Source: Roseivirga sp.
Lineage (GTDB): Bacteria; Bacteroidota; Bacteroidia; Cytophagales; Cyclobacteriaceae
Reading direction: 5' to 3'
DNA length: 64,000 nt
NCBI GenBank assembly: GCA_965277585.1
Contig: OZ255828.1
Span: 1,653,865 to 1,717,864 of the forward strand
The position numbers and the translations under genes were made by a program. Shown piece after piece: positions 426 to 20,700 of the stretch. How positions within the stretch are numbered: the first letter of the stretch is position 1; every line of letters starts with the position of its first letter. The notes under the pieces were generated by a model. It was not told the DNA's origin and ran no database searches. It saw only the letters and a program-made list of their open reading frames with translations.

Positions 426-2153
426 TCACTTAAGCTGAGTCAGCATTCGGGCTTTCACGACTTCCAGACGTTTCTTTGTGATGGCCAGCTTCTTACTGAA
501 TTTGTCACCTGCTTTGGGAACAATATCCACCGTGGTATCCAGTACATTGAGGTAGTAATCTGCCCAGGTGCTGATGATGTCTATTTCTTTGTCTCTGTCT
601 CCTCCACTGGCAATTGCCTCCTCGCTCAGGGCTAGCTCATCTTTCAGGCGGGTGTTGAGCGTATTGTTGAGATCATCCAGGAGGTAATCGCCCAGCTCCT
701 CCTTGTTCTCCGTCAACATCAGCGCAATCATCAATGCACCGGTTCCTACGTTTTCCAGTGTTTCTGGAGATACCTTATCTATTCTGTCACCATCGGTATG
801 GTAAAACTGATCAGTAAAATGCCAAAGCAGTACTCCCGGGATATTACCCTTCAGGAAAGGAACATGGTCGCTACCTCCCTCATAGGGATTGAATTTCACG
901 GTCCAGTTCCTCTTTTCTCCGATAGCCTGAAAAACGTTAATCGTCAGGTCATTAAAGTAATGGGGTTTCAACTGCTTTTTAGTAAGCGGGCTACCACCCC
1001 ACTCGGAGTGTTTCTCCACACCACGCACCCAGATAGCTCCGGGATCTGGCATTTTTTCGATCAGAAAAGTACCTCCGGTCAAATCGGTATTCTCTCCTAC
1101 CATATCGAGGCTCATACCCCATTTGATGTTCCTGGCACGCTCTTTATCCTCCTGAATAAACCTGCGGGTCGATACAATTTCGTCTCCGAAAAGGTAGGTA
1201 ATGGTGCGTTCGGGGTTGATCTTGCCTGCCTTCAGTAATCGTGCACTGGAAGTCGCTATTTCTCCCAAAGCCCCCACACCACTTGCGTTATCATTGGCTC
1301 CGGGTTCCTGTACGTGCGCACTGAATACAAACCGCTCTTCCGGGTTTTTACTTCCTCTCAGCTCTGCTACCAGGGTCAACTCTTCTGACTTCCACATTTT
1401 GGTTTCAAGATTCACCCTGATCTTAGTCTCTCCCCGCTCTATTGCTGCTTTCAGTTTTTGTCTTGCCTGATTAGACAGGAGTATGGCAAAAGACTTTTTT
1501 TCATCATTCCGGGGGATTCCGGTAAACTGAATGGAATTGACATTCTTATCAGCCTGCAGATAACCGGGCAATCCATAAGAGATCACACCAGCTGCTCCCC
1601 GCTTGTTTACCCCCTGGTTAAAGAGTAGTCGCGGGGAGGTCTCTCCAAACACCACTTTGCCTTTGAGGTCCTGAGTGAAATCAAGGCTTCTGCCCTCACC
1701 TACATAAACGACTTCAAACTCTTTCTCTCCACCCGTGCTATACGAGTGTATGGCCATCATATTGAAGTTGGTTTTGAAGTTGAGAATTTCTTCTCCCGAC
1801 CCCAGTTTCAGACTACCGGCCACTGGCTCCCAGGTAGGGTTTCTTAAGGGACGTTTTTCTATACGGTAAACAAGCCGGTTATCGGTACCGGCCTTGCTTT
1901 CTTCTACAAAACCAGCCGCTCTGAGCTTTTCCACCACATGATAAATACTCTTATCAAACCCCTCGTTACCTACCACACGCCAGTACTTCTCTACAAAAGC
2001 CACCGTATTAAAGGCCGACTCCTTGTCAAAGGTTTCCTCGATCATCTGAAAATAGGGGGCGATAAACTCAGGAAGCTGACGGGCATTCAGAGGAGAGCAC
2101 GCAAAAGCAGCAAGACAAAAAAGTGCGGAAGCAAAGGCTTTTCTAAGTATCAT
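426..2153 (-). CDS. M28 family zinc peptidase (aminopeptidase with PA-like insert), secreted
   Basis: The 594-aa ORF has HVQEPGANDNASGVGALGEIA, the M28 metal-binding signature. The start is likely at the internal Met 2153 (MILRKAFASALFCLAAFA signal peptide) rather than 2210. Confidence 0.75.
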   Translation of the reverse strand: MILRKAFASALFCLAAFACSPLNARQLPEFIAPYFQMIEETFDKESAFNTVAFVEKYWRVVGNEGFDKSIYHVVEKLRAAGFVEESKAGTDNRLVYRIEKRPLRNPTWEPVAGSLKLGSGEEILNFKTNFNMMAIHSYSTGGEKEFEVVYVGEGRSLDFTQDLKGKVVFGETSPRLLFNQGVNKRGAAGVISYGLPGYLQADKNVNSIQFTGIPRNDEKKSFAILLSNQARQKLKAAIERGETKIRVNLETKMWKSEELTLVAELRGSKNPEERFVFSAHVQEPGANDNASGVGALGEIATSSARLLKAGKINPERTITYLFGDEIVSTRRFIQEDKERARNIKWGMSLDMVGENTDLTGGTFLIEKMPDPGAIWVRGVEKHSEWGGSPLTKKQLKPHYFNDLTINVFQAIGEKRNWTVKFNPYEGGSDHVPFLKGNIPGVLLWHFTDQFYHTDGDRIDKVSPETLENVGTGALMIALMLTENKEELGDYLLDDLNNTLNTRLKDELALSEEAIASGGDRDKEIDIISTWADYYLNVLDTTVDIVPKAGDKFSKKLAITKKRLEVVKARMLTQLK

Positions 2154-2222
2154 GCTGTGAATATAAGAGAAGCGGTGGGAGATTTGAAGCGAGATCGACA
2201 AATGACACACTGTGGCGTCAGG

Positions 2223-3791
2223 CTACTTCTTTTTCAATACACGCCCTTTAAGAGCCTGGGTATATGCTGCTTCACTTATCGTTAATTCACCGTTGACCCA
2301 TAAATACTCTATTCCCTCGGAGTATTCGGCAGGGTTAGAAAAATCAGCCATCGGCTTGAATTCCTCCGGATCAAAGATGATCAGGTCAGCAAAATACCCT
2401 TCTTTCAACTCTCCTCTTCTGGCAATACCAAAAGTCCGGGCCACCTGGCCACTCGATTTGAAGACAAAGGATTCCAGCGAAAGAAGTGGCTTATTGACTA
2501 CATAATCCTGGTATTTCTTAGGATAGCTGGCATACTTTCTGGGATGGCCGGTGGTGCCGTCAGAGCTGGTCATAACCCAGGGCTGCGTCACAAAGTTCTC
2601 AAGGTCATAAGGGTTCATGTTGAATGATGCCACCCTGGCACCTCCCTCACGGGCTATTTTCAAGGCAGCCTCTACCGGATCGAGCTTTAATTTTTCTGCT
2701 ATTTGGGCCAGATTTAATCCAATGAGGCTCGTATCACGGAGATCGGCCGTAATCAGGAGTGATTCAGCACCTCCTCTTTTCCGCATGTTTTCTTTGATCT
2801 CACTGCGTATCTGGGGAAGCAGCTGTTTGTTGTTTAAGCGGGCATAGTATTGCTCTTCCCCACCGGCCTTCACCCAATTGTCTATCAGTGCATTTTCCAG
2901 ATGAGTACCCGATGCGCGCCAGGGATACTGATCAGCAGTGACCGTGACACCTCTGGCTTGGGCTGCTTCGATGAGAGCAATCACCTCATCACTCTTCTTC
3001 CACACATCTACTCCCAGTGCCTTGATATGTGCAAAATGCACAGGAACTCCTGCCTTTTCACCGATTTCTATGGTCTCCTTCACGGCATTGATCAAACCGA
3101 TGTTATAGCTGCTCTCATCCCTGATGTGACTATCGTAAATACCCCCAAAGGGAGCTGCTTCTTTGGTAAGCTCAATGACCTCCTCCGTTGCAGAGTAACT
3201 TCCGGGTACGTAATACAGTCCGGTGGAGAAGCCATAGGCCCCTTCGGTCATACCCTGCCTGACGAGTGCCCTCATCTGCTCCAGCTGATCGGCATCAGGT
3301 TTTATGTTCTTATCGCCCAGTACAGCCCGTCTGATCACATTATGCCCCACCAAAAATGCAGTATTGGTACCAATCCCCTGCGTTTCCAGCTGACTGGCAA
3401 GCGCAGTAATCTCATAAGGACCAGCACCATCATTACCGTTCACTACGGTTGTAACTCCCTGGGTGAGATAGTTCAGATTGGCATTACGATCCCGGCTTTT
3501 CAAGTCGCCCAGGCTGTGGGTATGTGCATCAATAAAGCCAGGGGAAACAATTTTCCCTGTAGCATCCAGTACCTTACCGGCCCGGATGTTCACGGAAGAA
3601 GCATCCCCCACAAACAGAATGCTGTCTCCGCTCAGGGCTATATCTCCTTTATAGGCTGCGCTACCTGTTCCGTCTACTATGGTGCCATCTTTAATCAAAA
3701 AATCTGCTTCCAGGACTGCGGGCTCACAGGCACTCAAAAAAGCTATGATTGACAGTAAGACCCAGGTTGTATTTCTGATATTTTTCATCAT
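2223..3791 (-). CDS. N-acyl-D-amino-acid deacylase (D-aminoacylase) family amidohydrolase, secreted/lipoprotein
   Basis: N-terminal signal plus SPGFIDAHTHS metal-binding motif of the amidohydrolase/D-aminoacylase family. The ORF is 522 aa. Confidence 0.75.
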   Translation of the reverse strand: MMKNIRNTTWVLLSIIAFLSACEPAVLEADFLIKDGTIVDGTGSAAYKGDIALSGDSILFVGDASSVNIRAGKVLDATGKIVSPGFIDAHTHSLGDLKSRDRNANLNYLTQGVTTVVNGNDGAGPYEITALASQLETQGIGTNTAFLVGHNVIRRAVLGDKNIKPDADQLEQMRALVRQGMTEGAYGFSTGLYYVPGSYSATEEVIELTKEAAPFGGIYDSHIRDESSYNIGLINAVKETIEIGEKAGVPVHFAHIKALGVDVWKKSDEVIALIEAAQARGVTVTADQYPWRASGTHLENALIDNWVKAGGEEQYYARLNNKQLLPQIRSEIKENMRKRGGAESLLITADLRDTSLIGLNLAQIAEKLKLDPVEAALKIAREGGARVASFNMNPYDLENFVTQPWVMTSSDGTTGHPRKYASYPKKYQDYVVNKPLLSLESFVFKSSGQVARTFGIARRGELKEGYFADLIIFDPEEFKPMADFSNPAEYSEGIEYLWVNGELTISEAAYTQALKGRVLKKK

Positions 3792-5041
3792 TTCCGGTTT
3801 TCAAGCAATATCCTGATCATCTCCTCGGAAGTGATTTTTCCGATCAGATCAATGGTATCACGCGGGGTTCGATCTCCAATTTCGTAAGTCATGCCCTCTG
3901 CTCCAAACTGAGAATAAAACCAGCCTTTGGTTACCGGGGTAGCCAGCCCCTTCGGCTTTTCGTTGACTTTGTACCCTGGTAATCGGGTTTCCAGGGCTTT
4001 AAACCACTGCTCTCTGAACCAGGGCGTGGTAGGCGTTTTCTGAATGGACTTGTCCTGGGTATAGAAAACATCGCGGTAAGTAGAATGGAAGTCCAGCCCC
4101 AGCAAGACCTTGCCTCCTGTTTCATGCTGCATTCTGACAATATGATTGGCGATTGCCCGCGTTTCAGGCTGACGATAGTAAGCCCAGTCCCTGTTCAGGT
4201 CCACACCGTTCGCATTATGGCGCCAGTGGCCCATATCCACCCCGTCAGGGTTGAGCAGCGGATAGATAATGACACGGTACCTGCTTAAAAAACTCTCCAG
4301 TTGTGAACTTTCCATCATCCGCTCTACAAATGCCTGCATGGCAAAGAAACCGGTTACTTCCGGAGGGTGCTGCCGGCTGAGAATGACGATGATGTCCTTT
4401 TTTCCAGACTTACCCTTGTTAACATCCAGGAAAATCAGATCTCGCCCCTGTGCGCTTTTTCCCGCAGAGGACAGACGAACATCAGGATGGTCGGCAAATG
4501 CTTCCGCCCAGTCACGCACTCTTTTGGTATCGTAAATCTCCTGGGCCGATACCCATAAGGTATCAGAAGAAAGTGGCAGCCTGATCACAGCACTGCCCCC
4601 TTCCTCTTCAACAACAACCCGATGATCATCGATCTCTCTCCAGACCTTTCCATTACTACTCAACTTCGGAGGGTAACGGTGCCTGGCTTCTTGATAATTC
4701 ATTTTGAGATAAACCTCCTGTTCACTATCAGCCCAGACCTTGAATGCATACCAGGGGCTGTTGTTGACCGGATAGTTCTCTGCAGCAACCCGAGCCTCCA
4801 GTAGCGTATCATTCACTCTTTTTATCTCGTTGAGCCGGGCTCCCGGAAAATCATTCGTGATGTAAACATCCTCCCCTAAGTCATACAACTGCTTTACCTG
4901 TTCCTCAACAGCTTTGTTTCCCGTATCCACAGGAGTAGGAAAATCGTAGGTCGAGGCCTGTGGTATCTCAGGCTGATTGCTACAGCCCCACAATAGCAGA
5001 ACTAACAGAAAGTGAACAGGGGTCTTTTTGAAGGACGGCAT
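3788..5041 (-). CDS. M14 family zinc carboxypeptidase, lipoprotein
   Basis: Lipoprotein signal (LLVLLLWGCS). Zn carboxypeptidase-like motifs include DFHSTYRDVFY and HPPEVTG. There is a 4-nt ATGA overlap with the upstream gene. Confidence 0.65.
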   Translation of the reverse strand: MPSFKKTPVHFLLVLLLWGCSNQPEIPQASTYDFPTPVDTGNKAVEEQVKQLYDLGEDVYITNDFPGARLNEIKRVNDTLLEARVAAENYPVNNSPWYAFKVWADSEQEVYLKMNYQEARHRYPPKLSSNGKVWREIDDHRVVVEEEGGSAVIRLPLSSDTLWVSAQEIYDTKRVRDWAEAFADHPDVRLSSAGKSAQGRDLIFLDVNKGKSGKKDIIVILSRQHPPEVTGFFAMQAFVERMMESSQLESFLSRYRVIIYPLLNPDGVDMGHWRHNANGVDLNRDWAYYRQPETRAIANHIVRMQHETGGKVLLGLDFHSTYRDVFYTQDKSIQKTPTTPWFREQWFKALETRLPGYKVNEKPKGLATPVTKGWFYSQFGAEGMTYEIGDRTPRDTIDLIGKITSEEMIRILLENRK

Positions 5042-5056
5042 AACAGAATTCTTTGC

Positions 5057-6052
5057 TTATTCGAAATAGCTCGTCAGGGGAATATCTCCCATGGTTCTCA
5101 GACCCGGCTTTGCTTCCAGAATTCTGGCGATACTGTTGATCGTGATCGCACAGGTAGCCACATCTCCGTTAACACCTCCGTCTATTCTCGATTTGATATT
5201 CGGAGTTCCCTGAATGATAACCTCATCATATGACTCGGGCTCTCCTACTGCTGCCTGAAAAGTCAGCGTGATTTTCTCTTCTCCATTCAACCAGCCTTTT
5301 CCTATCTGGCACACGCCCATCGCATCTCCTTTTTTGATGTCCATGCTTTCGGTATGCACATCTTCTGAAGCGACTACAGGAGCAATCACATCCTCCGTGG
5401 CATCAAGCTTCCAGCCAAGTTTAGCCGCCACAAATTGCATGGATTCTGTCAGCCCCACATGCCGGAGGGTTCCCTCTTTTTTTCTTTGTTCAAAGGCATC
5501 AAGACTCAAGCCGGCACCTATCTTTCGCTGAAAGGGGCCTCTTCTGTAGGCTGCATTCTGGTATCGGTTGATTGTTACCTTTTCTACATGCTGACAGACA
5601 GAGGTAAGAAATGCCGGCAGGGAATCCATCAGGAACCCGGGATTGACACCAGTACCTACCACAGCTGTGTTCATCTCAATCGCCAGCTTATCAATACGGG
5701 CTGACAACTCAGGGGCGCAGTCCCAGGGATAGCTCAGCTCTTCGCAGGTGGAGACTACCGGAATACCCGCCTTCACGATCTCCTCTATCTGGGGGGTAAT
5801 CCGCTCCATATCCGACACAGTGGTCAATACGGCCACGTCCGGCCTCACTTCACCCAAAACTTCCATCAGGTTTTCGCTGATACTCACCGCATCGCTCAAA
5901 TCCTCGTGGAGGTCCGCCAGTTGCTTACCGATCAGTTCGGGATTCTTGTCTACCGCCCCTACGGTTTCAAGGCTGTTTCTTTGAGAGATGAATTGCCCGA
6001 TTTTTATCCCGAGGGGGCCCATTCCTATCTGTACTACTTTGATTTTGTTCAT
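5057..6052 (-). CDS. NAD(P)-binding oxidoreductase of the dihydrodipicolinate reductase / meso-diaminopimelate D-dehydrogenase-like family
   Basis: IKVVQIGMGPLGIKIG Rossmann motif at the N-terminus; GVNPGFLMDS and GAGLSLD resemble Ddh/DapB-family motifs. The start is placed at internal Met 6052; the longer ORF to 6142 adds a dubious 30 aa. Confidence 0.5.
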   Translation of the reverse strand: MNKIKVVQIGMGPLGIKIGQFISQRNSLETVGAVDKNPELIGKQLADLHEDLSDAVSISENLMEVLGEVRPDVAVLTTVSDMERITPQIEEIVKAGIPVVSTCEELSYPWDCAPELSARIDKLAIEMNTAVVGTGVNPGFLMDSLPAFLTSVCQHVEKVTINRYQNAAYRRGPFQRKIGAGLSLDAFEQRKKEGTLRHVGLTESMQFVAAKLGWKLDATEDVIAPVVASEDVHTESMDIKKGDAMGVCQIGKGWLNGEEKITLTFQAAVGEPESYDEVIIQGTPNIKSRIDGGVNGDVATCAITINSIARILEAKPGLRTMGDIPLTSYFE

Positions 6053-6142
6053 ACTGTCCTTTGTTATGCTCCGGCTCATCCGGATCAGAATATTCGAAAA
6101 GTAGAGGAGCGTAACGGATAGGACTATGCCGATCCTGCTCAT

Positions 6143-7069
6143 TTACGAAGCACGAAGGGCTGTAGGGCTTGTTTGATAATTGCGCCTGAACAGGCGTGTA
6201 AATGAACTGTGACTCTCGAAGCCTACATCAGAGGCGATGCTTGAAACAGGTAAATCGGTGGTTTTTAGCAGGTAGGAAGCGTACTTTAATCTTTCTCTGG
6301 TAAGAAACTCCAAAGGTGTGAGTTGATAAAACTCCTTAAAGGTTCTGAAGAAATGATAAGGAGAAAGGGCAGCCACCTCGCTCACCTCATCAATGCTCAG
6401 TTTAGAGGCCAGGTTGGCACTCATAAAATCTCTGGCCAGGCTGATACGCTTATAGAGTTCTACCTTGGTTGATTTCTTGATCGACTTGATCTTATCTACC
6501 TCAGCCAGTGTAGAAAAATGATTTCTGACAATTTTCTCCAGGAGATCGTAGGTGAGCTCCTGATAGGCCATGGCACCATCTGCTTTGTTTAAAATGGCTT
6601 TCTTCATTTGCGCCAGGGCCGCGTTGATTCCCGGATCATTGTCATAGGCCGTTTCGAAGATGCTCAGTTCATCACTGTAATCTTTGAGAATGTTATCGAT
6701 AAGCAGATCTCCTGATTTTATGGTATTATCCAGTACATCATTGATCTCATTGTCTCCGAAAGCCACAATAATGGCTTCAGTATTCTCCTGGGAATCGATC
6801 TCACTGTAGTAGGTCTGGCCCTTGTTTACGATCAGGTAGTTGTCTTGCTTAAGCACGCAGTCTGCATTCCCCACTTTGTGGTATTGATAACCATTCAGAA
6901 CTGCCCGAAGTGTAAAACGTGAGGTATGCTTGCCTGAATTGAGCTTATTAGACCGGATGAAGAACGCATTACCGGAATCCCGCTCTCCCACCTGATTGGT
7001 CTGCGAGCAATAGTTATTGTGCTCAAAAGCCGTCAGCAGATTATTACAATATGGGCACTTGTTTTCCAA
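6143..7069 (-). CDS. AraC family transcriptional regulator
   Basis: C-terminal AraC HTH (SPYHFFRTFKEFYQLTPLEFLTRERLKYASYLL ... GFESHSSFTRLFRRNYQTSP). It is divergent from the susC-like gene. Confidence 0.85.
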   Translation of the reverse strand: MENKCPYCNNLLTAFEHNNYCSQTNQVGERDSGNAFFIRSNKLNSGKHTSRFTLRAVLNGYQYHKVGNADCVLKQDNYLIVNKGQTYYSEIDSQENTEAIIVAFGDNEINDVLDNTIKSGDLLIDNILKDYSDELSIFETAYDNDPGINAALAQMKKAILNKADGAMAYQELTYDLLEKIVRNHFSTLAEVDKIKSIKKSTKVELYKRISLARDFMSANLASKLSIDEVSEVAALSPYHFFRTFKEFYQLTPLEFLTRERLKYASYLLKTTDLPVSSIASDVGFESHSSFTRLFRRNYQTSPTALRAS

Positions 7070-7334
7070 AAGTTGATGGTTATCAGAATCAAGCCGCTCA
7101 GGTTATTTCTGTATGACAAGGAAACCCGACATCAATGAAAGCTCCAACTCAGAGTACTTCCCGATGCTTCACCTCCTCAGTATGAGGCTCTGTCTCCGGG
7201 CAAAAAACCACAGGTTTTCTTCCAAAGACAAACTCACTACACAAAATCGCTCATTGGCTCACTTCTCAGGTAAAACTACAAAAACAAATATTAAAATTTG
7301 ATAAACACTAAAATTAAAGAATATAATTTCAGCA

Positions 7335-7362
7335 ATATTCAGAATATCAGACTTATATTCTG
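7335..7362. promoter_or_regulatory. Overlapping palindromes in the AraC/susC divergent intergenic region (candidate operator)
   Basis: Two palindromes seen: ATATTC-A-GAATAT (7335-7347) and CAGAATAT-cagactt-ATATTCTG (7340-7362), about 220 nt upstream of the susC start in AT-rich DNA. Confidence 0.3.
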
Positions 7363-7576
7363 AAAATAACAAAAGGCTACTTTTTAGGCGGAAGCGATAT
7401 TTACAATCCCAAACTTGTAAATAAGCCGGTCAAAAAAACTCTTATCAGAACAACTGCTAGACAAGTCTGCAACCGAGCGAAATAGCAGAATCTGCACAGC
7501 CTTACTATATGATTTGCTCAATCTTTAAAGATTAAGCAATGGATTTTTTCGCTAAAACCATAATGGAAATTTAAGT

Positions 7577-10500
7577 ATGATGAAAAATTTACGGATTAAA
7601 ATTCTCATGCTCTTACTACTTTCCGGTTCCGGTTTGTTTGCTCAACAAACCGTTACGGGAGTCATAAGAGATGCTAATGGAGAGACCATGGTCGGAGTCT
7701 CCGTTAGAGAAAAAAACACGACAAACGGGGCCATTTCCCAGGGTGATGGCTCTTACTCAGTCACTGTTGCCAACAGTTCTGCTGTACTGGTATTCACTTT
7801 TATCGGCTATCAGGCCGTAGAACGAACAGTAGGTAATCAAACAGTGATCAATATTACCATGCAGGAAGATGCCACCCTGCTGGAAGAAGTAGTAGTAACC
7901 GCACTGGGTCTGACCCAAAGAAAAGACGAACTCGGGTCTACCGCCTCTACTGTTAAGGCAGCAGACGTTACCCGTTCCGGGGAAGCCACACTACTCAATT
8001 CGTTAGGTGCCAAAGCTTCTAATGTTCAGATCAACCGGTCCAATGGTGATCCGGGAGCAGGGTCGACCATTAAGATCCGGGGCGCCAACAGTATTACCGG
8101 TACCTCCAGTCCATTGATTATTGTAGATGGTATTCCCATCTCTAACAATACGCAGTATGGTGGTGGTAACAACGCCACAGGTGGTAGAACCGGAGGTGTT
8201 TCTCAGCAATCCAGGATTAACGACATCAATCCGAATGACATAGAGTCTGTACAGATTCTGAAAGGGGCCTCGGCAGCAGCACTCTGGGGGTCCAGAGCCG
8301 CCAATGGGGTAATCGTGATCACTACCAAAAACGGTCAGGCCGGTAAGCCTAAGATCAGTTATAAGTTTACCACTTCCTTTGACGAAGTAAACCAGCGATA
8401 TGAACTGCAGAATGTTTGGGGGCAGGGAAGATCAGGTGCTTACAACCCTACCAGAGCAGAAGCCTGGGGTGATTACATTCCCGATAGAAATGGCGGAGCC
8501 GATGAGGTAGACCCCAATGGTGGCGTTTTCATAGCACAGGATGGCACAGAATACCGACCTATCCTTACCAAAAACTCAAGAGGCACCTTTGTAGACGAAA
8601 ACTGGGATGCTGTTTTTCAAACGGGTGGTTTCCAGCAACATGATCTTACTATCAGTAGTGGTAATGAAAAATCGTCCTATTTCTTTAGTCTGAGCCGACT
8701 GGATCAGGAAGGTATCATCAAGGAGAGTAACTATGACAGAACGAATGTGAGGTTGAACAACCGTACCTTCTTCAACGACTGGTTGTCTATGGAGTCAAAG
8801 GGTAGTTTTACCCGTACTTTCTCCAACAGAATCCAGCAAAGCTCTAACACAGCTGGTCTGCTTTTGGGTCTTTTGAGAACACCACCAGATTTCGATTCAA
8901 GAGATTACCTGGGTACCTATGTAAGTGCCAGTGGTGAGTCTTTCCCGCTCAGACACCGCTCATATCGAAGATACCTGGGCAATGCTACCAACCCGATTTA
9001 CAATAACCCCTTATGGACTGTTTATGAGCAGGATGCTACAAGTACCGTAAACCGTTACCTGTTCTCTGCTTCTATAGATATTGAGCCGGTGGACTTTCTG
9101 TCTGTAAAGCTCAGAGGGGGACTTGATGGCTATGACGATAAGCGTACCTACTTCTTCCCCATCGGTTCTGCCGGCAGTCGCGCTAACGGACAGTTTGCAG
9201 AAGATGTACTCGGCAGACAGGAAATCAACTTTGATGCTATTGTGACCGGTCGTTTTTCTCTGACAGATGATATCGGGTTGAACGCTACCGTTGGCTGGAA
9301 CCTGAACGACAGAAAACTGAGAGGTAACAGTACTGATATTGTCGGCTTCCTGGTAAATGCCAGAAAACCAACAACAGACCTGAACACAGCTGCTGAAAAC
9401 TCCACCATCAGCAATTCCAATACAAAGATCAAATCCAACAGAGGTTATGCTCAGTTGAATTTTGATTTATTCGACCAGTTGTACGTGAATGTATCGGGTG
9501 CCATTGAAGCTTCTTCTACGGTAAAAGGTAACTTTACTTACCCTGCCACGGATGTTGCCTGGCAGTTCACCAAGCTCCCCTCTTTTGGCAACTCTACCAT
9601 ACTTTCGTTTGGTAAGTTAAGAGCCTCATGGGGTCGTGTGGGGGTAGCCGCTCCTGCTCACAGATTCCAGACACTGGCAGAAGGTGGCTTCTCTTATTCT
9701 ACCTACAGTGATCCGCTGGATATCGCCCTCTTCGGTGGTGGTTTCCGATTGGATGATGACAAAGGTAACCCACTCCTCGAGCCTGAGATCAAGGAAGAAT
9801 GGGAAATCGGTGCTGATCTGAGATTCTTCGAAGACAGACTGAATCTGACCTTCACTTACTATAACAACAGTATTACCGGTATCATCATTCCTGTAGACCT
9901 CACGCCTTCTTCAGGTTTCGATACTCAGATTCTGAATGCTGCTTCTATGGAAAACAAAGGTTTTGAAATGGATTTCGGCTATGATGTGCTTTCTGACGGA
10001 AACTGGAACGTCAACTTCTATGGTAACTGGGCCACTAACGAAAACCTGGTAACGGACTTACGCGGTACAGAAACCATCGACCTTTCAGGAGGTTCTGTAA
10101 GCTCCAGGGCCATTGTAGGACAGCCATTGGGCGTCCTTTACGGAACAGGTTCTCAAACCAATGCCAATGGAGAATTTATCCTGGATGCCAATGGTTTCCC
10201 TCAGTTGACACCAAGCCCGATTGTACTCGGTGATCCTAACCCGGATTGGCGTGGTGGACTCGGTGCTGAAGTTACCTGGAAAAAATTCAGGTTGAACGTA
10301 CTCGTAGAGCATTCTGAAGGTGGCACTTTCTCTCCAAGATCGCTTTGGGTACTCAACAGATTTGGCACTACACTGGAAACAGCTAACAGGTTTGTCACCA
10401 CGGAAGCACTGACCAATTACGCTGGTGATGTGATTCCTGCCGGTACTACAGTACGTGGAAATGTAAGAGACTTCGGAGCCGGTAATGTTTTACTGGATGA

Positions 10501-10816
10501 ATCATGGTACAGAACAGGTATTGGCGGGGGCTTTGGTGATAACCAGGCTTACAACTTCGCAGTGTATGATGCCACCTTTACCAGGCTGAGAGAACTCTCT
10601 TTAGGATATACCTTCGATTCTCCTTCATTCAGAGAAAAGACCAAACTGAGCTCTATCATTGTGACAGCTACGGGTAGAAACCTCTTCCTCTGGGATGGTA
10701 TTCCTGGTATTGACCCTGAAGTAAATCAGACAGGTGTTGGTAATGGTTTGGGACTGGAATACTTCACCAACCCCAGCACAAGGTCATATGTACTTTCTGT
10801 ACTTGTTAATTTCTAA
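7577..10816 (+). CDS. susC: SusC/RagA family TonB-linked outer membrane transporter
   Basis: The 1079-aa ORF has an N-terminal signal, a carboxypeptidase-regulatory-like domain (QQTVTGVIRDANGE), a TonB plug (LEEVVVTALG) and a C-terminal beta-barrel ending in an aromatic residue. Confidence 0.9.
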   Translation: MMKNLRIKILMLLLLSGSGLFAQQTVTGVIRDANGETMVGVSVREKNTTNGAISQGDGSYSVTVANSSAVLVFTFIGYQAVERTVGNQTVINITMQEDATLLEEVVVTALGLTQRKDELGSTASTVKAADVTRSGEATLLNSLGAKASNVQINRSNGDPGAGSTIKIRGANSITGTSSPLIIVDGIPISNNTQYGGGNNATGGRTGGVSQQSRINDINPNDIESVQILKGASAAALWGSRAANGVIVITTKNGQAGKPKISYKFTTSFDEVNQRYELQNVWGQGRSGAYNPTRAEAWGDYIPDRNGGADEVDPNGGVFIAQDGTEYRPILTKNSRGTFVDENWDAVFQTGGFQQHDLTISSGNEKSSYFFSLSRLDQEGIIKESNYDRTNVRLNNRTFFNDWLSMESKGSFTRTFSNRIQQSSNTAGLLLGLLRTPPDFDSRDYLGTYVSASGESFPLRHRSYRRYLGNATNPIYNNPLWTVYEQDATSTVNRYLFSASIDIEPVDFLSVKLRGGLDGYDDKRTYFFPIGSAGSRANGQFAEDVLGRQEINFDAIVTGRFSLTDDIGLNATVGWNLNDRKLRGNSTDIVGFLVNARKPTTDLNTAAENSTISNSNTKIKSNRGYAQLNFDLFDQLYVNVSGAIEASSTVKGNFTYPATDVAWQFTKLPSFGNSTILSFGKLRASWGRVGVAAPAHRFQTLAEGGFSYSTYSDPLDIALFGGGFRLDDDKGNPLLEPEIKEEWEIGADLRFFEDRLNLTFTYYNNSITGIIIPVDLTPSSGFDTQILNAASMENKGFEMDFGYDVLSDGNWNVNFYGNWATNENLVTDLRGTETIDLSGGSVSSRAIVGQPLGVLYGTGSQTNANGEFILDANGFPQLTPSPIVLGDPNPDWRGGLGAEVTWKKFRLNVLVEHSEGGTFSPRSLWVLNRFGTTLETANRFVTTEALTNYAGDVIPAGTTVRGNVRDFGAGNVLLDESWYRTGIGGGFGDNQAYNFAVYDATFTRLRELSLGYTFDSPSFREKTKLSSIIVTATGRNLFLWDGIPGIDPEVNQTGVGNGLGLEYFTNPSTRSYVLSVLVNF

Positions 10817-12258
10817 TGAAAACATCTCAAAAAATGAAAGTCATGAAAAAATACTTATACGCGCTTATCGCAGGCCTTTTCCTGATCTCCTCATGCCAGG
10901 ACATTTTGGAAGATGTAAACGATAACCCCAATCAGATTACTCCTGAGGAAATTGAAGCCAGATTGTTCCTGACAGGAGCCCTGTTGGCCAACACCAGTGG
11001 TCAGGCAGGACACCTGAACAGAATCTCAGGTATGTATAGTGGACAGTTGGTGGGAATTACTTCGCTTTATTCCAATATCTACGGTTATTCCTTGTCTACG
11101 GCAGAATCAGTAGGCACCTGGAGTCGCTTCTACATTGGTGTAGTTCCCAATCTGAGGTTTATCAGAGAGCGATTACCAGATGATAACCTGATGCAGGGTA
11201 TAACGAAGGTTGTAGAAGCCCATGCCATTGGTACTGCTGCTTCACTCTTCGGTGATGTACCTTATTCTGAAATAGCAGGGGATATCGAAGACCCGGCTTT
11301 TGATGGACAGGTAACCGTGCTCAATGCTATGATTGCGCTGCTGGACGATGCCATCTCTGATTTGAGTGCTGCCCCCAACGCTTCTATAAGCGAGGACATT
11401 TACTTCGGAGGAGACGGTGCTAAATGGCTGGCAGCTGCCAACACTCTCCAGGCACGCTATTACATGCTCATGAAAAACTATCCGGCCGCCTTGCAGGCAG
11501 CTCAGAATGGTATTGCTGATGCGTCAGGTAATATGCAACACATCCCCCGGGGTGACCCAAGCGTAGCATCAGGAGACAAAAATCTGTTTTGGGAGATCCT
11601 GGCAGGTGCCAGAACGGGTGATATCGGTACAGCCGACAGCTACATGATCCAGTTACTGGATAACAGTACCGCTGTCTACCGAGGCAATGCCAAAACAGAT
11701 GAAACTGCCAGACTCGGCTACTATACCATCGATGAAACTTCGGCTGACAATAACCTGGGAATCATTGAGCAGTTCGAGCCACAAAACCTGGTTACCTACC
11801 AGGAGAACAAACTCACTTTGGCGGAAGCCACTATCAGGGGAGGAAACTTTGCCGGTGCGCTACAACACCTGAACGAATACAGAGCCTGGCTCAACGGTGG
11901 TGGCGGACTCAATGCCAACTTCAGCGGTATGACGCATCAATACGATGCCTATGTAGCAGCTGATTTTGACAACGGGGGCATGGAAAACGCAGATGGTATT
12001 TCTGCTTCTGATGCCCTGCTGAGGGAAATCATTGAAGAGCGATATATCTCAGGATTTGGTACCTTTATGCCTTACGATGATGCCAGAAGAATCAGAGTAT
12101 CTGACCCGTCTTTGGGAGTGCCATTTCCTTTCAACACCAATACCGCTACTCAGCACCCTGAAAGGATGCCTTACTCAGATGACGAGTTGAATACCAATTC
12201 CAATGCTCCGGCTGAGGACCCTGGTATCTTCACAAAAACTGAAGTAAACAGAAACTAG
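10816..12258 (+). CDS. susD: SusD/RagB family nutrient-binding outer membrane lipoprotein
   Basis: Immediately follows susC with a 1-nt overlap. Lipoprotein signal LFLISSCQD. The 480-aa length and TPR-like composition fit SusD. Confidence 0.85.
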   Translation: MKTSQKMKVMKKYLYALIAGLFLISSCQDILEDVNDNPNQITPEEIEARLFLTGALLANTSGQAGHLNRISGMYSGQLVGITSLYSNIYGYSLSTAESVGTWSRFYIGVVPNLRFIRERLPDDNLMQGITKVVEAHAIGTAASLFGDVPYSEIAGDIEDPAFDGQVTVLNAMIALLDDAISDLSAAPNASISEDIYFGGDGAKWLAAANTLQARYYMLMKNYPAALQAAQNGIADASGNMQHIPRGDPSVASGDKNLFWEILAGARTGDIGTADSYMIQLLDNSTAVYRGNAKTDETARLGYYTIDETSADNNLGIIEQFEPQNLVTYQENKLTLAEATIRGGNFAGALQHLNEYRAWLNGGGGLNANFSGMTHQYDAYVAADFDNGGMENADGISASDALLREIIEERYISGFGTFMPYDDARRIRVSDPSLGVPFPFNTNTATQHPERMPYSDDELNTNSNAPAEDPGIFTKTEVNRN

Positions 12259-12280
12259 TATTTAATTCATTCAGGCTTAA

Positions 12281-13054
12281 ATGCTTAAACATATCATACA
12301 AAAGGGTTACCGGAATCTGATTCTGGTAGCCCTCTTTTTTCCTCTTTCCGCCCTTGCCCAGCAAGCCGATACACTGGATATCCTCTTTGTGGGCAACAGT
12401 TATACCTATTTCTGGAATTTACCGCAGCATGTCAACCTTATGGCTGCATCACAGGGACGCAGTTTTGCCAGCAGACAATCCACTGCAGGGGGCAGCAACT
12501 GGGAACATCATTTACAAGGAGAACGAGACCTCAGGTCGGTTGAGCTGATCAGGCAGGAGGGCTGGGAATATGTGGTACTTCAGAACCACAGTATGAGCAC
12601 CCTCAACCGGCTCGCAGAGTTCAGAAAGAACGGTAAGACACTTATCAGCATGATCAGAAAGGCGGGTGCTGAACCAGTGTTATATATGACCTGGGCGCGC
12701 GAGTTCAATCCGCTTATGCAAGACCCCATCACCTCAGGATATCTATCCCTCGCCAAAGCCGAACGCGTCTCTGTAGTACCTGTGGGCCTCGTCTGGGCTA
12801 AAGTACGAGCACTCCGTCCGGACCTTAAACTTTTTGACCCGGATGGCAGTCACCCCTCTCCTGTCGGAACATACCTCAATGCATTGATCTTTTACCGGTT
12901 CTTCTCCGGAGCAGCTACTGCCGAAATTCCCAACCGACTCCAGACCACGGATAAAGATGGCGAGAAGACCTACCTGAACTTCCTCACTCAAAACGATGCA
13001 GACTTTCTGCAGCAGGTGGTAGACCTGTTCGACTTTTCGGCCTACAAATTCTGA
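12281..13054 (+). CDS. SGNH/GDSL hydrolase family protein, secreted
   Basis: LFVGNSYTY block-I Ser motif and DPDGSHPS block-V Asp/His motif, plus a signal peptide. Confidence 0.65.
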   Translation: MLKHIIQKGYRNLILVALFFPLSALAQQADTLDILFVGNSYTYFWNLPQHVNLMAASQGRSFASRQSTAGGSNWEHHLQGERDLRSVELIRQEGWEYVVLQNHSMSTLNRLAEFRKNGKTLISMIRKAGAEPVLYMTWAREFNPLMQDPITSGYLSLAKAERVSVVPVGLVWAKVRALRPDLKLFDPDGSHPSPVGTYLNALIFYRFFSGAATAEIPNRLQTTDKDGEKTYLNFLTQNDADFLQQVVDLFDFSAYKF

Positions 13055-13106
13055 CAGCTGAGTCTGAAATTCCTGACCGACTGATAATTCGCCTGATCGG
13101 AAATCT

Positions 13107-13138
13107 GTCTGCTTCGCAGATCATGCCTGGAAGCAGAC
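13107..13138 (+). terminator. Hairpin downstream of the SGNH gene (candidate terminator)
   Basis: GTCTGCTTC-14 nt-GAAGCAGAC 9-bp stem followed by ACTATTTGT. Confidence 0.3.
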
Positions 13139-13240
13139 ACTATTTGTAGACAAATTGTTGACCGGTCAAAATGTCGTCCCGGGTTTGATAGTAATGTAGG
13201 GTCAAATCCACCTACTTTATATAGCTAAAGCACCTCCCGT

Positions 13241-14053
13241 ATGAGAAAATACGTTGAACCCTTTGTGATGATCGGTCTGGCATTGATACTGGGACTTACC
13301 TTCAAACCTGAAGAAAAGCCAGCAGGCCATGACCCTGGTGCTTTCGAAAACGAGATTCCATACTGGCCACTTGATGTAGAAAAATTAAAGGGTGACACGG
13401 TCATTCACGTGCCTTTTGACCCCTATTTTAAAACTGCCAAGACCTACAAGGCTTTTCCTCTGGCCGCCAACCTCAGGGCTTTTCTTGGTTCCGGTGCAAT
13501 CGATACGTCACTGGATGTAATTTTTGAATGTACCGATGGATACCGGCCTCATATGCCTCTGGAGAAAGTACTCCGGGGCAATGGCTATCTCGCGTACCGG
13601 GATCTGGAAGCCCCTGAAGGCAAACAGTGGCATGATAGTGTGGCGCAAACCATGCCTCCCTTTTATTTAATCTGGCCGGACGCTGCGACAGAAAGTAAAG
13701 ATTATGTAAGACCCTACGCTCTGAAAGGGGTTGAATTTAAAAAGGCAGAGGAAGAGTTTGCTGCCGCCATTCCCCGGGCAAAAGAACATATGGAAGGCTA
13801 TCAGCTCTTTAGCAGCACCTGTATGAAGTGCCATTCCATCAACAAAGCCGGAGGAGCTAAGGCCCCCGAGCTCAATTATCCCAAGAATATTACAGAATAC
13901 TGGACCAAGGAGAATATCTGGAACTTTATTCAAAACCCGGCTTCCTTTCGCTTCAACAGCAAAATGCCTCCCATGTCTGGTATAGACCGGGCCGCTTTCG
14001 AGAAGATATATGCCTACCTGGAAAGCATGAAAGACCAAAAACTGACTGAGTAG
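13241..14053 (+). CDS. c-type cytochrome (single CXXCH heme motif), membrane-anchored/secreted
   Basis: CMKCH heme-binding motif; N-terminal hydrophobic segment; SKMPPMSGI Met-ligand-like region. Confidence 0.7.
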   Translation: MRKYVEPFVMIGLALILGLTFKPEEKPAGHDPGAFENEIPYWPLDVEKLKGDTVIHVPFDPYFKTAKTYKAFPLAANLRAFLGSGAIDTSLDVIFECTDGYRPHMPLEKVLRGNGYLAYRDLEAPEGKQWHDSVAQTMPPFYLIWPDAATESKDYVRPYALKGVEFKKAEEEFAAAIPRAKEHMEGYQLFSSTCMKCHSINKAGGAKAPELNYPKNITEYWTKENIWNFIQNPASFRFNSKMPPMSGIDRAAFEKIYAYLESMKDQKLTE

Positions 14054-17724: not shown

Positions 17725-20700
17725 CTATAACTTCTCTTTTTCGAGGTCCGGGCCCAGGTATTGATGCACTGTTTTAATCAGTAATTTGTAGTCTACAGGC
17801 TTAGACAGATAGTCATCCATTCCCGCAGCCAGACACTTTTCTCTTTCGCCTACCATAGCAGCAGCCGTCAGGGCCACAATGGGCACATTGGCATTTTCAG
17901 AGTCAAGTGCCTTAATAGACCGTGTGGTTTCATAGCCATCCATCACAGGCATTTGTAAATCCATCAGCACTAAATCGTACCGATAGTTTTTCACCATGTG
18001 CAAGCCTATTTCACCATTCTCTGCACAATCCACCACAATCCCATGGCGCTCCAGCATTTTTGTAGCCACCTTCTGATTGGTAGGGTTATCCTCAATCAGA
18101 ATGATTCTCTTGGCAGAGCTTTGTTCTTCTTCCTCTATTTCTTCGGGCAGTTCTTCCTGGGGTTCATAGTGCAGGTCTTCTTCAAAAACCTCCTCTGTCT
18201 TAATGTAGAATCTGAAAATAGATCCGCTGTCCTGATCGCTTTCAGCCCAGATTTCTCCGCCCATGTTCTCTACCAGTTCTTTACAAATGCTCAGACCGAG
18301 CCCTGTACCGCCATAAGCCCTGGTATTCCCACTATCTACCTGTGTAAAGCTCTCGAATATCCGGTTCAACTGAGTTTCAGGCATGCCAATCCCCGTGTCA
18401 GTAACCGTAAACCAAACCTCAAACTGATCATCTCCCTGGCTCAAACCCTCCGCCAGAATGGTTACACCTCCTGAATGTGTAAACTTAACGGCATTGGAAA
18501 CCAGGTTGACAAGAACCTGTCTCACGCGGTCCCGGTCTCCCAGCACAAGGTCCGGAATGGTAGGAAGCACCCACTTCTTCAGGTAGAGATTCTTCTGACC
18601 GACCAGGGCCTGGAAAGAAGCTGCTACCTCCTCCAACAGATCCTTGATGCTGAAAACCTCAGAGGCAAAATGCATGGCACCTGCTTCAATTTTAGCGATA
18701 TCCAGAATGTCATCCACAATTACCTTAAGCGAACCAGCGGAGTTGGCCAGCGTATTCAGTATATCTTTTTGTTCTGTAGTCGATTCGGTCTCGAGTGAGA
18801 GCTGCGTCAGGCCTACTATACCATTCAGAGGTGTTCGGATCTCATGACTCATATTGGCCAGAAAACGACTCTTGATATTATTTGCCTCTTCTGCTTCAGC
18901 CAGGGCTACCTTCAGCTTCTCCTCTGCCTTCTTCCTCTCGGTAATTTCCTCAGTAAGCTCTGTGGACCTCTCTTGCACAAGAGCTTCCAGCTCCTTTCTT
19001 TTCTTGATAATCCTCCTGTTTCGTCCCCAGAGAATCAGGGCCATCAGGCCAATTACCGCCAGACCAATCAGCAACTTGAACCAAAGGGTCTCATAGAAAT
19101 GTGGCTGAATGGTAATAGCCAGCCTTTTCGTCTCTGACCAATCAGAAAAACGGCCTTTGGACTGTACCAGAAGCTCATAGTTCTTGCCTCCGGGAATGTT
19201 CTCAAAATTGGCTCGCCCGTCAAGTTTCTGTACTATCCAATCATTGTGATAGCCCACCAGCTTATAGCGGTATTTGACATCCCCGGGTCTGATATGATCT
19301 ATTGACCCATAGGTGATGGCGAAGCTGTTCTGCTCACAATTCAAAACAAGCTTATCAGTAACCGAAATGTCCTTTTCTAAAGGCGAGTCTTCTGCACCCG
19401 CCTTTACCTTTTCACCATTTACAAACAGCGAGGTGAATGCGAGGTTTTGTGGTATTTCGTATTCAACAATATAATCGGGGTGAAAAAGGGTAAGCCCGCT
19501 CAGGCCTGCCATCAATATTTTGCCCTCACTGTTCTTGATACCTGCTCTTTCAGAGAAGTGATTACTCTGCAAACCATCACTAATATCGAAGTTGTTGATA
19601 ACCGTTTGAGAAGTATCAGCATGATCAATTCTCAGCTCAGTAAGGCCCGCATTGGTAGCAAGCCACATAACACCTTCATCATCCTCAACAATTGATCTGA
19701 TATCATCACTCTTGAAACCGTTTTTCTCATTGTAGACCTCCTTTAGTTTCAGGTGTCTGTCGAGTAACAACAGGCCATCCTGCTGAGTGGCTATGAATAA
19801 TCCATGCCTTTCGCTTTCATAAATAGCATTAATGGGCAGATCAGCCGCTTCAGTTCCCTTCTCAAGGGAAACAGACACTTTTTCCAGGACGCCCCCTTTC
19901 AGAACAAAGAGCCCGCGATCGCTCCCCGCCAGAATAGTACCATTCTTAAGTTTGTTAATCGCGTTAATGGCTGGTACGTAATCTAGAGAAACTCCGTCAG
20001 CCCTTACCTCAATATCCCGCAGTACCTTGGAGACAGTTGAGTACATTTTGAAACCCTGATCTTCCGTACCCAACCAGGCATTATCTTTTTCGTCCACAAA
20101 AACGGCATTCACCTTAATTCCACTCAGTACATCTGGAAGAATACGCTCATAAGTTCCTGTTTTAACTCTCCAGCTCACAAGGCCATTGTTGGTTCCAAGC
20201 CAAAGATTATCATCCCTACAGTTATCGATAGCCAAAATGCCATTTACCTGATCAGCCATTTGCCCCTGAAATGGATAATGTTGGAATTTCCGGGTTGAGG
20301 TATTGAATTTTGAAAGTCCTTTACGCGACCCCAGCCAGGTGTTTCCTTTATAGTCGAACAGCGAGAAAATGGAATAATCCATCAGGTCATTCTCTGTTCC
20401 CGCCTCCGTGGTCTGTCCATAGTAATCAAATAGATTATCAGCGCTATGGTAATAGTTAATTCCCGAGTTAGGTGTGGTGATCCAAACCACTCCCTGTTTG
20501 TCCTGGTAGATACTTCTGAGCGTTTTGTCAGATAATGAGAAGGCATTATCGAAATCATACTTTACAAACCGACTTTCGTCAGTCTCCAGGTCCACTATAG
20601 TAATGCCATCCAGCGTAGCTACCCAAACATCCTTACCATCCACCAGGTACATATCACTGATATGATTATTCGTCAAAGGGGTCTGGGCGCTTCCTTCATG

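Follow-up and report, generated by a model that had tools for sequence, protein, structure and literature searches.

A stretch of 64,000 nucleotides from the genome of Roseivirga sp. (GenBank assembly GCA_965277585.1, contig OZ255828.1, positions 1,653,865 to 1,717,864 of the forward strand), called the window throughout, contains at its positions 426 to 14,053 a locus in which the two outer-membrane genes susC and susD are accompanied by peptidases, an amidohydrolase and a dehydrogenase. Judging from the sequences of these genes and from the company they keep in other genomes, we consider it somewhat better than an even bet, with a probability of roughly 0.55, that the locus belongs to a non-glycan SusCD utilisation system for anionic peptides with D-glutamate and/or gamma-glutamyl bonds. 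The candidate substrates would be peptidoglycan stem peptides and poly- or oligo-gamma-glutamate, which the sequence data do not separate. SusCD transporters are nearly always interpreted as importers of glycans, and loci lacking carbohydrate-active enzymes (CAZymes) are as a rule passed over. At the same time, D-amino acids from bacterial walls account for a considerable and fairly long-lived share of marine and soil organic nitrogen, on which such abundant degraders as the Flavobacteriia, Saprospiraceae and Marinimicrobia draw. The main interest of the locus lies in a testable molecular route for organic matter containing D-amino acids in abundant environmental bacteria.

The SusCD pair and its conserved neighbourhood

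The two outer-membrane genes encode a genuine SusCD pair. SusC (7577-10816, plus strand) scores 598 bits against TIGR04056 (cut-off 368) and 61 bits against the SusC/RagA signature TIGR04057 (cut-off 46), and together with its Pfam domains, Plug and CarbopepD_reg_2, these matches place it among the SusC/RagA-type TonB-dependent transporters. SusD (10843-12258, plus strand) is a lipoprotein of the SusD family and of the SusD-like_2 type (PF12771 85 bits, PF12741 57 bits, cut-off 27), with a lipobox ISSC and an acidic stretch after it; Pfam returned no match to PF07980 (SusD_RagB) or PF14322 (SusD-like_3). In the open reading frame (ORF) listing the start of susD overlaps the stop of susC, and the public call of 471 amino acids begins 26 bp downstream. 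The PDB profile matches of SusD include no RagB chain and only a weak match to BT2263 (5e-06), and an AlphaFold2 model computed from 16 close homologues had a mean predicted local distance difference test (pLDDT) score of 59, too poor for use.

The genes around the pair were established by the ORF listing, Pfam, NCBIfam and the public gene calls on identical DNA, all of which agree, and the nine genes that a sequence-only reading of this DNA had listed were all found where it had placed them or a few codons off. Downstream of susD on the same strand lie the gene of a secreted SGNH-fold protein of 257 amino acids (12281-13054) and, 186 bp after it, that of a c-type cytochrome of 270 amino acids (13241-14053). 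On the minus strand, an AraC-family regulator (6143-7069; HTH_18 and HTH_AraC) is the first gene, followed by an oxidoreductase with a DAP_DH_C domain (5057-6052; PF19328, 115 bits), referred to below as the dehydrogenase, a carboxypeptidase of family M14 (3788-5041; PF00246), a D-aminoacylase-like protein with an Amidohydro_3 domain (2223-3791), whose gene overlaps the M14 gene by 4 bp, and a peptidase of family M28 (426-2153; PF04389, 59 bits). The gaps between these five genes, of -4 to about 90 bp, suggest that they form one operon. Export signals, either lipoprotein or signal peptides, are seen on the M28 peptidase, the amidohydrolase, the M14 carboxypeptidase, SusD and the SGNH protein. 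No glycoside hydrolase, lyase, carbohydrate esterase or sulfatase domain was found by Pfam within 1-26.5 kb of the window, as the sequence-only reading had said of the first, second and fourth of these, and the locus falls outside the PULDB-type definition of a polysaccharide utilisation locus (PUL) because its susC and susD have no neighbouring CAZyme at all.

To place the pair among its relatives, 80 species-level loci were fetched by means of SusD alone, and their ORFs were called and clustered; a reverse test fetched 80 metagenome loci by means of the dehydrogenase gene alone. The ORF calling is heuristic, and many of the loci are contigs of metagenome-assembled genomes (MAGs) or short contigs. 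Over the loci found by SusD, the identity of SusC is 49-93%, and SusD is 56-90% identical in Roseivirga and other Cyclobacteriaceae (Cytophagales), Saprospiraceae, Flavobacteriaceae and Marinimicrobia, the nearest relatives of the window being Roseivirga MAGs. Between the same genomes SusD is more conserved than the neighbouring enzymes: in a comparison of the window with the Flavobacteriaceae locus L070, the identity is 57% for SusD and 60% for SusC, and 43-47% for the M14 carboxypeptidase, the amidohydrolase and the dehydrogenase. We take this extreme conservation of SusD as an argument for one defined ligand class.

Several enzymes of the window recur beside the pair, in bacteria of marine and of wastewater origin. 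Orthologues of the M14 carboxypeptidase lie one to four genes from susCD in 15 of the 80 loci, the amidohydrolase (46-52% identical) stands beside SusCD in 12, AraC orthologues (32-44% identical) occur in 10 and the dehydrogenase in 8, and no single neighbour of this SusCD family is commoner than the SGNH protein, which adjoins susD in 21. For other recurrent partners, no homologue turned up in the 64 kb of the window. They are a Sortilin/BNR protein of about 950 amino acids (21 loci), a DASS carrier (19), a gamma-glutamyltranspeptidase (GGT; 16), an FGase-like amidohydrolase (8), a DUF1611 or DgcN-like protein (7), a protein with an fn3 domain and/or a sorting domain of the type IX secretion system (T9SS), termed fam12 (6), an enolase like DgcA or L-Ala-D/L-Glu epimerase, a D-amino-acid-transaminase-like enzyme and an S9 peptidase (3 each), and an M20 peptidase and a GltP-like carrier (2 each). 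The recurrent families mostly lie one to four genes from susCD and on the same strand, in differing order; loci with orthologues of the window's genes come from Saprospiraceae, Cyclobacteriaceae and Flavobacteriaceae alike, with varying order and orientation. At least one gene of glutamate or D-amino-acid type (GGT, FGase-, DgcN-, DgcA- or transaminase-like, DASS or GltP-like) is present in 26 of the 48 loci that measure at least 15 kb. A census of 100 other neighbours gave nothing recurrent, with GH20 in 2 loci and no CAZyme theme.

The reverse test points the same way. The commonest neighbours of the dehydrogenase are SusC (16 of 80 loci), the amidohydrolase (16) and SusD (15), followed by a GltP-like carrier (8), a MocR regulator (7) and M14 (7). 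An operon of Flavobacteriia type is seen repeatedly, in which a MocR gene faces away from M14, SusC, SusD, the dehydrogenase and the amidohydrolase, in this order, after which a MurI-like gene, a T9SS-sorted protein and a GltP-like carrier may follow; here susD is immediately followed, on the same strand, by the dehydrogenase and the amidohydrolase, and M14 comes immediately before susC. Since the neighbourhoods are conserved in both search directions, the peptidase, amidohydrolase and dehydrogenase genes are tied to SusCD beyond chance, and since the combination recurs rearranged in other genomes, it is more than a coincidence of one genome, apart from the M28 peptidase and the cytochrome. 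The non-glycan, SusCD-centred locus proposed by the sequence-only reading is upheld, with no CAZymes in it and no recurrent ones in related loci.

Two of the optional members of the Flavobacteriia-type operon deserve description. The MurI-like protein, encoded directly after the amidohydrolase (L128:12371-13900, L106:12117-13685, L132:15508-17037 and L135:6251-7780), has 509 amino acids, a lipoprotein signal and about 240 extra residues, carries the motifs GVFDSGTGGLTV, ACNTA and GCTHYP, and has glutamate racemase as its best NCBIfam match (106 bits); a glutamate racemase that is exported, as these features suggest, would be unusual. The fam12 protein (L067:13816-15150, L112:12569-13813, L128:13910-15193 and 7 others) has about 410-500 amino acids, an optional N-terminal fn3 domain and a C-terminal T9SS sorting domain (Por_Secre_tail), and its core keeps His247, Asp251, His332, His417, Glu419, Glu421 and four Cys invariant. 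Neither Pfam nor the solved structures, hydrolases of poly-gamma-glutamate (PGA) included, offer a match to this core, the PDB profile search having matched the sorting domain only. The fam12 protein recurs in operons with SusCD, the dehydrogenase and the amidohydrolase, and it may be a surface depolymerase.

Ten Marinimicrobia (Neomarinimicrobiota) MAGs (L056, L060, L062, L064, L069, L071, L075 and L077-L079) carry SusC and SusD 49-59% identical to those of the window, within a conserved cluster of NhaC, a YheO-like regulator, SusCD, Sortilin/BNR, DASS, FGase-like, esterase-like, DgcN-like, GGT and DgcA-like genes, which points to cross-phylum conservation or transfer of a whole system. In five other loci, from Saprospirales and Cytophagales (L011, L016, L020, L043 and L080), Chorismate_bind and class-IV aminotransferase (pabC-like) genes stand directly beside SusCD in differing orientations, possibly as lineage synteny or as a hint of para-aminobenzoate (pABA)-glutamate or folate; a folate or pABA-glutamate theme was considered on this basis and set aside, as the remaining neighbours do not fit it.

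The enzymes of the locus

The M14 carboxypeptidase has its PDB relatives among the cytosolic-carboxypeptidase-like (CCP-like, M14D) enzymes 3l2n, 4a37, 4b6z and 3k2k and the mammalian CCP5 (8v3m). The matches span the N-terminal domain, of beta-sandwich type, as well as the catalytic domain (query residues 51-312), and the protein is placed in M14D accordingly. It has a lipoprotein signal (lipobox LLLWGC) and is therefore exported, which departs from the cytosolic location of CCPs. Its clade keeps HPPE, NRDW, DFHS, TYEIGD and Lys372 invariant, this lysine standing two residues before a conserved Trp; by its spacing to the catalytic Glu it presumably maps onto the S1' positions 255/256 of carboxypeptidase A. 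In the structure paper of the Burkholderia cenocepacia CCP such an S1' lysine was argued to suit glutamate; CCPs are described there as deglutamylases in eukaryotes, and the cell-wall peptidases that cut gamma-D-Glu-meso-diaminopimelate (mDAP) are placed in a separate subfamily, M14C (PMC3940198). The sequence-only reading had noted gamma-D-Glu-mDAP and murein-tetrapeptide carboxypeptidases as members of the M14 family. An assignment of the window's enzyme to these fails: the MpaA model NF007897 gave 24 bits against a cut-off of 157, and neither an MpaA nor an ENP1 chain is among the PDB matches.

For the amidohydrolase, the PDB relatives are the D-aminoacylase 1m7j (4e-68), the N-acyl-D-Glu deacylase 3gip (3e-49) and OngB (2e-42), and the PRK09061 model is matched with 175 bits, under its cut-off of 340. 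The motif DAHTH, an HxH metal site, and the QYPW hinge are present, an Asp stands where the Alcaligenes enzyme has its metal-bridging Cys, and the lipobox is perfect. N-acyl-D-amino-acid and N-acyl-D-glutamate deacylases are said, by Cummings et al. in 2009, to cleave L-Xaa-D-Xaa dipeptides as well. The HMMER alignments end at the hinge, about residue 300, short of the counterpart of the specificity residue Arg295 (Bb3285) or Leu298 (DA1). That residue separates the D-Glu-specific from the hydrophobic-specific enzymes, an N-acyl-D-glutamate deacylase being a solved relative (PMC12149444).

The dehydrogenase was earlier taken for a DapB-like or meso-DAP-dehydrogenase-like oxidoreductase and has to be reassigned. 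Its PDB relatives are 7xdu, of the 2,4-diaminopentanoate dehydrogenase (2,4-DAPDH) type (7e-54), and the native amine dehydrogenase AmDH4 (6g1h and 6g1m); no chain of the meso-DAP dehydrogenase Ddh was matched in the PDB at E <= 0.01, and the Pfam match PF19328 is itself of 2,4-diaminopentanoate type. With 248 bits for NF040740 (Ord), under the equivalog cut-off of 400, it does not qualify as Ord. Its clade keeps E105, R163, Q165 and F265 invariant: it retains the catalytic Glu and an Arg that corresponds to R161 of AmDH4, and has Gln and Phe in place of Asn163 and His264 of Ord/AmDH4, two residues that are reportedly (Mayol et al.) the substrate-carboxylate ligands of 2,4-DAPDH. The longest ORF (5057-6142) would give 361 amino acids; the likely start is Met31, 30 codons in, which yields 331 amino acids without a signal peptide and agrees with the shorter public call. 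By these features, the protein is best described as a cytoplasmic NAD(P)-dependent amine or amino-acid dehydrogenase in a distinct clade of the 2,4-diaminopentanoate dehydrogenase family.

Relatives of the dehydrogenase also occur away from SusCD. In eight metagenome loci without SusCD (L117, L127, L141, L146, L151, L157, L158 and L162) the gene is directly followed by a rubrerythrin/ferritin-like gene of about 159 amino acids, and in another context without SusCD, of L153 type and from one lineage, it stands with genes for a true glutamate racemase, which at 183 bits passes the cut-off, for a 3-hydroxy-D-aspartate-aldolase-like enzyme and for a GltP-like carrier.

The M28 protein, whose signal peptide ends in what is probably a lipobox (..AAFAC), has the architecture of an aminopeptidase with a PA-type domain, and its best PDB relatives are 2ek8 and the YwaD aminopeptidases. 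Its longest ORF (426-2210, 594 amino acids, GTG start) is probably too long; the true start likely lies 19 codons downstream, and the public call gives 575 amino acids from Met20, after which the signal peptide follows. Of the 80 loci, L001, from the Roseivirga sp. MAG that is the window's closest relative, is the sole one with a homologue beside this SusCD family, by which distribution the peptidase is a lineage-specific addition to the operon and not a conserved part of the system. The c-type cytochrome is likewise conserved in L001 only and is probably not part of the system either, which removes both from the set proposed by the sequence-only reading; it has a C-terminal mono-haem domain (CMKCH) and about 170 N-terminal residues without a Pfam match.

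The SGNH protein has only a weak Pfam match to DUF4886. An AlphaFold2 model (pLDDT 92) gave 4s1p, 4i8i (DUF4886) and TesA as the top Foldseek matches with a probability of 1.00, and S40, G70/G71, D188 and H191 are invariant within the motifs GNSYT...DxxH. Fold, block I Ser, block II Gly and the DxxH of block V identify an SGNH hydrolase, with no canonical block III Asn assigned, whose closest relatives are uncharacterised. Nothing links it to the peptidoglycan O-deacetylation suggested earlier: as candidate O-acetylesterases of Ape1/PatB type were compared, the PatB structures ranked only 39-49 in Foldseek with 9% identity. In Echinicola vietnamensis (CP003346.1, L081:10001-12246) the genes of the SGNH orthologue and of a DASS carrier overlap and make up a unit of two inside a glycan-type PUL, which has a different SusCD with a RagB-type SusD, a Big_2 protein, a SASA esterase and a weak GH88 match; occurring thus in an unrelated SusCD locus, the two genes behave as a portable module. 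In L001 the SGNH gene (L001:11467-12367) is shortened, with 11% of the window protein matched, and an IS1-family transposase ORF occupies its position in an otherwise intact locus, so that the gene there is probably inactivated. Taken together, the M14, D-aminoacylase-like, dehydrogenase and SGNH proteins appear, by their sequences and models, to be new-clade members of the M14D, D-aminoacylase, 2,4-DAPDH/AmDH and SGNH families.

Between araC and susC lies a divergent, AT-rich control region of 507 bp (7070-7576), with a GC content of 0.41 measured over 7001-8000 and one strong sigma-70-like match at 7298-7327, a consensus which is not of the Bacteroidota promoter type; the promoter and terminator scan was uninformative for a Bacteroidota genome. 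Farther along the window, at 17725-21441 on the minus strand, is encoded a hybrid sensor kinase of 1238 amino acids with Reg_prop/Y_Y_Y propellers, HisKA, HATPase and receiver domains and without an AraC-type HTH, which resembles a truncated hybrid two-component regulator of PULs. An ECF sigma factor, a DUF6768 protein and a membrane AraC-type protein are encoded between it and the locus.

Proposed route and alternative explanations

A route can be proposed in which import and the periplasmic hydrolases follow from family assignment, while the inner-membrane uptake, the deamination and the regulation are inferred, together with the identity of the substrate, the enzyme specificities, the co-regulation of the operons and the part of the dehydrogenase. 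The SusD lid would capture a peptide, which the TonB-dependent SusC barrel would pass to the periplasm. There, the CCP-like M14 enzyme would strip C-terminal acidic residues, its lysine in the S1' region fitting Glu, and the amidohydrolase may cut acyl-D-amino-acid bonds and so free a C-terminal D-residue, for instance D-Glu (from gamma-Glu-D-Glu or L-Ala-D-Glu) or D-Ala; in this lineage only, the M28 aminopeptidase would trim N-termini. The freed (D-)amino acids would then cross the inner membrane, for which related loci encode DASS or GltP-like carriers and the window none, and the cytoplasmic dehydrogenase would oxidatively deaminate one of the products, be it a D- or acidic amino acid or a diamino acid. 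With one of the products as its signal, AraC may activate the two divergent operons.

Glutamate is taken as the common denominator because in related loci GGT, MurI-like, DgcN/DgcA-like and D-amino-acid-transaminase-like enzymes stand in for these steps or add to them. [quoted passage not shown] The D-amino-acid context suggested by the sequence-only reading is thus borne out by GGT, the DgcN/DgcA-like, transaminase-like and racemase homologues and the GltP and DASS carriers, in a narrower form: what the loci have in common seems to be acidic D-amino acids and gamma-glutamyl bonds, and not D-amino acids at large. More tentatively, the family may be a dedicated outer-membrane gateway for D-Glu peptides (peptidoglycan remains or gamma-polyglutamate) that spans two phyla, Bacteroidota and Marinimicrobia, and works with a periplasmic deglutamylase of CCP type, a D-aminoacylase resembling a D-specific carboxypeptidase, an exported glutamate racemase and a new clade of NAD(P)-dependent amine dehydrogenases that would act on a D- or diamino acid in the cytoplasm. 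The literature on SusC/SusD with GGT, D-aminoacylase, peptidoglycan or D-amino acids, polyglutamate or PF12771, as far as it was searched, gave no account of a SusCD locus joined to such enzymes.

Several observations weigh against a glutamyl-peptide system. The substrate is read from the neighbours only, and about half of the SusCD loci have no gene of glutamate or D-amino-acid type within 10 kb. The three commonest neighbours, SGNH, Sortilin/BNR and DASS, have no obvious peptide-catabolic role, and the SGNH and DASS pair is also part of the glycan-type PUL of Echinicola. The window itself is without GGT, racemase, DgcN/A and an inner-membrane carrier, and the MurI-like gene is known from four related metagenome contigs of one lineage. 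The amidohydrolase and the Ord-, DgcN-, DgcA-, GGT- and MurI-like proteins all score under the equivalog cut-offs, and the D-aminoacylase family includes the sugar-acid deacetylase OngB. In addition, the B. cenocepacia CCP was barely active when given a model substrate with Glu (PMC3940198).

Within the glutamyl-peptide reading, the substrate suggested by the sequence-only reading, namely peptidoglycan stem peptides or muropeptides, is a possible sub-case that we would not call probable. In order, the amidohydrolase would remove D-Ala, M14 would cut around gamma-D-Glu-mDAP, the amidohydrolase would split L-Ala-D-Glu and the dehydrogenase would handle the diamino acid. In seawater, sediment and sludge alike, gamma-D-Glu has a single ubiquitous source, peptidoglycan, which matches the wide distribution of this SusCD family; the founding member of the dehydrogenase family acts on a diamino acid with a D-alpha-centre, the enolase-superfamily neighbour in the Marinimicrobia loci also matches models of L-Ala-D/L-Glu epimerase, and GH20 occurs in 2 loci. 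However, M14 is of the wrong subfamily, not MpaA/M14C, the dehydrogenase has no Ddh similarity detectable in the PDB search and holds Gln and Phe at the two presumed carboxylate-ligand positions, and near SusCD there is no recurrent amidase, lytic transglycosylase, NagZ, MurQ, LD-carboxypeptidase, alanine racemase or dehydrogenase, or DAP epimerase or decarboxylase. The recurrent enzymes all point to Glu, whether gamma-linked and/or D-, and none to Ala or DAP, which makes poly- or oligo-gamma-glutamate about as good a candidate as muropeptides. For this second sub-case, which on its own we hold to be rather unlikely, a surface enzyme would nick the polymer and SusCD would import the oligomers; in related loci GGT would work from the N-terminus, and M14 (on L-Glu) and the N-acyl-D-Glu-deacylase-like enzyme (on D-Glu) from the C-terminus, with a racemase or DgcN/A converting D-Glu and GltP or DASS carriers taking up the product. 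Such a scheme gives a role to GGT, to M14 with its S1' lysine, to the deacylase relatives and to the FGase-, MurI-, DgcN/A- and GltP-like proteins alike, it accords with deglutamylation by CCPs in eukaryotes (PMC3940198), and the T9SS-sorted protein of the operon, with its invariant His, Asp and Glu, may be the surface depolymerase. Against it, that protein resembles no solved structure including PGA hydrolases, the dehydrogenase is left without an obvious role, and GGT and the racemase are missing from the window. It is also doubtful that the polymer is abundant in these habitats, gamma-PGA not being known to be plentiful in the organic matter of the sea or of sludge.

Two explanations do without a D-glutamyl or gamma-glutamyl substrate. 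The SusCD pair might be a general oligopeptide importer of proteolytic Bacteroidota, with the peptidases as ordinary trimmers and the D-amino-acid genes incidental; RagAB of Porphyromonas gingivalis, a complex of SusCD type to which the pair would then be similar in function, reportedly imports peptides (bioRxiv 10.1101/755678), the Saprospiraceae and Flavobacteriia are well-known protein degraders, and generic peptidases (M28, S9, M20 and M14) are among the neighbours. We hold this improbable, as SusD is of the PF12771/PF12741 type with no SusD_RagB or SusD-like_3 match, its conservation argues for one defined ligand class, and the recurrent enzymes (GGT, the D-aminoacylase family, racemase and DgcN/A) are specialised and not broad endo- or aminopeptidases. 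It would be less expected still that the susCD-SGNH unit and the operon of araC, dehydrogenase, M14, amidohydrolase and M28 are regulated and used independently, and that SusCD brings in an acidic compound other than a peptide, to be handled by the SGNH esterase, Sortilin/BNR and DASS; one candidate for that compound would be an esterified di- or tricarboxylate or an acidic sugar derivative, with the amidohydrolase as an OngB-like deacetylase. The rank of these three neighbours, their presence in part (SGNH with DASS) in the Echinicola PUL, the membership of OngB in the amidohydrolase's family and the half of the loci without any peptide or D-amino-acid gene all speak for independence. It is weakened by the Flavobacteriia-type loci, where the dehydrogenase and the amidohydrolase come right after susD on the same strand and M14 right before susC, by the reverse search, in which this SusCD is the top neighbour of the dehydrogenase, and by the lack of recurrent sugar-acid catabolic genes near SusCD.

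If the glutamyl-peptide reading holds, the substrate range of SusCD transporters would be widened, the bacterial CCP-type M14 enzymes and the new amine-dehydrogenase clade would gain a physiological context, and the genes could serve as markers of peptidoglycan or polyglutamate turnover in metagenomes and metaproteomes. Should the D-Glu gateway also be real, it would give particle- and bloom-associated bacteria a major molecular route for recycling that part of the dissolved organic nitrogen of the sea which consists of D-amino acids.

Comparison with known systems

Sus-like PULs share with the locus the adjacent susC and susD, the SusC/RagA signature, the SusD lid, the divergent regulator and the exported lipoprotein hydrolases, and with the window's relatives also a T9SS-sorted surface protein and an inner-membrane carrier. 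They differ in that the locus has no CAZymes and instead has as its hydrolases a metallocarboxypeptidase, an aminopeptidase and an amidohydrolase of D-aminoacylase type, and in that its SusD varies far less between orders and phyla than is usual for the SusDs of glycan systems. RagAB of Porphyromonas gingivalis and the peptide-loaded BT2263/2264 are likewise of SusCD type, handle peptides and not glycans, and resemble the pair in architecture and in the presumed pedal-bin mechanism; however, the lid here is SusD-like_2/SusD-like and not SusD_RagB, and RagAB is not in an operon with enzymes of D-amino-acid or gamma-glutamyl metabolism.

Among the enzymes, the M14D CCPs of Pseudomonas aeruginosa (4a37) and B. 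cenocepacia (4b6z) and CCP5 have the same succession of N-domain and catalytic domain with HxxE...H...E, and the B. cenocepacia enzyme shares the lysine in the S1' region, which suggests an acidic (Glu) specificity, whereas the window protein is an exported lipoprotein and not cytosolic. [quoted passage not shown] Ord and AmDH4 are of the same fold family (PF19328) as the dehydrogenase, with the catalytic Glu and Arg kept; the window's clade has invariant Gln and Phe for Asn163 and His264 and lies below the Ord cut-off, and no ornithine aminomutase is nearby, the genomic partners of the clade being SusCD, the D-aminoacylase homologue, glutamate racemases and GltP. Finally, the Marinimicrobia loci with the same SusCD resemble the DgcN-DgcA pathway in carrying DgcN-like and DgcA/epimerase-like genes, which points to a D-Glu product. 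That pathway and the recycling of murein peptides (MpaA, YcjG) differ from the present system in that DgcN/DgcA-like genes are not in the window, with the matches elsewhere below the equivalog cut-offs, and in that neither is linked to an outer-membrane SusCD importer.

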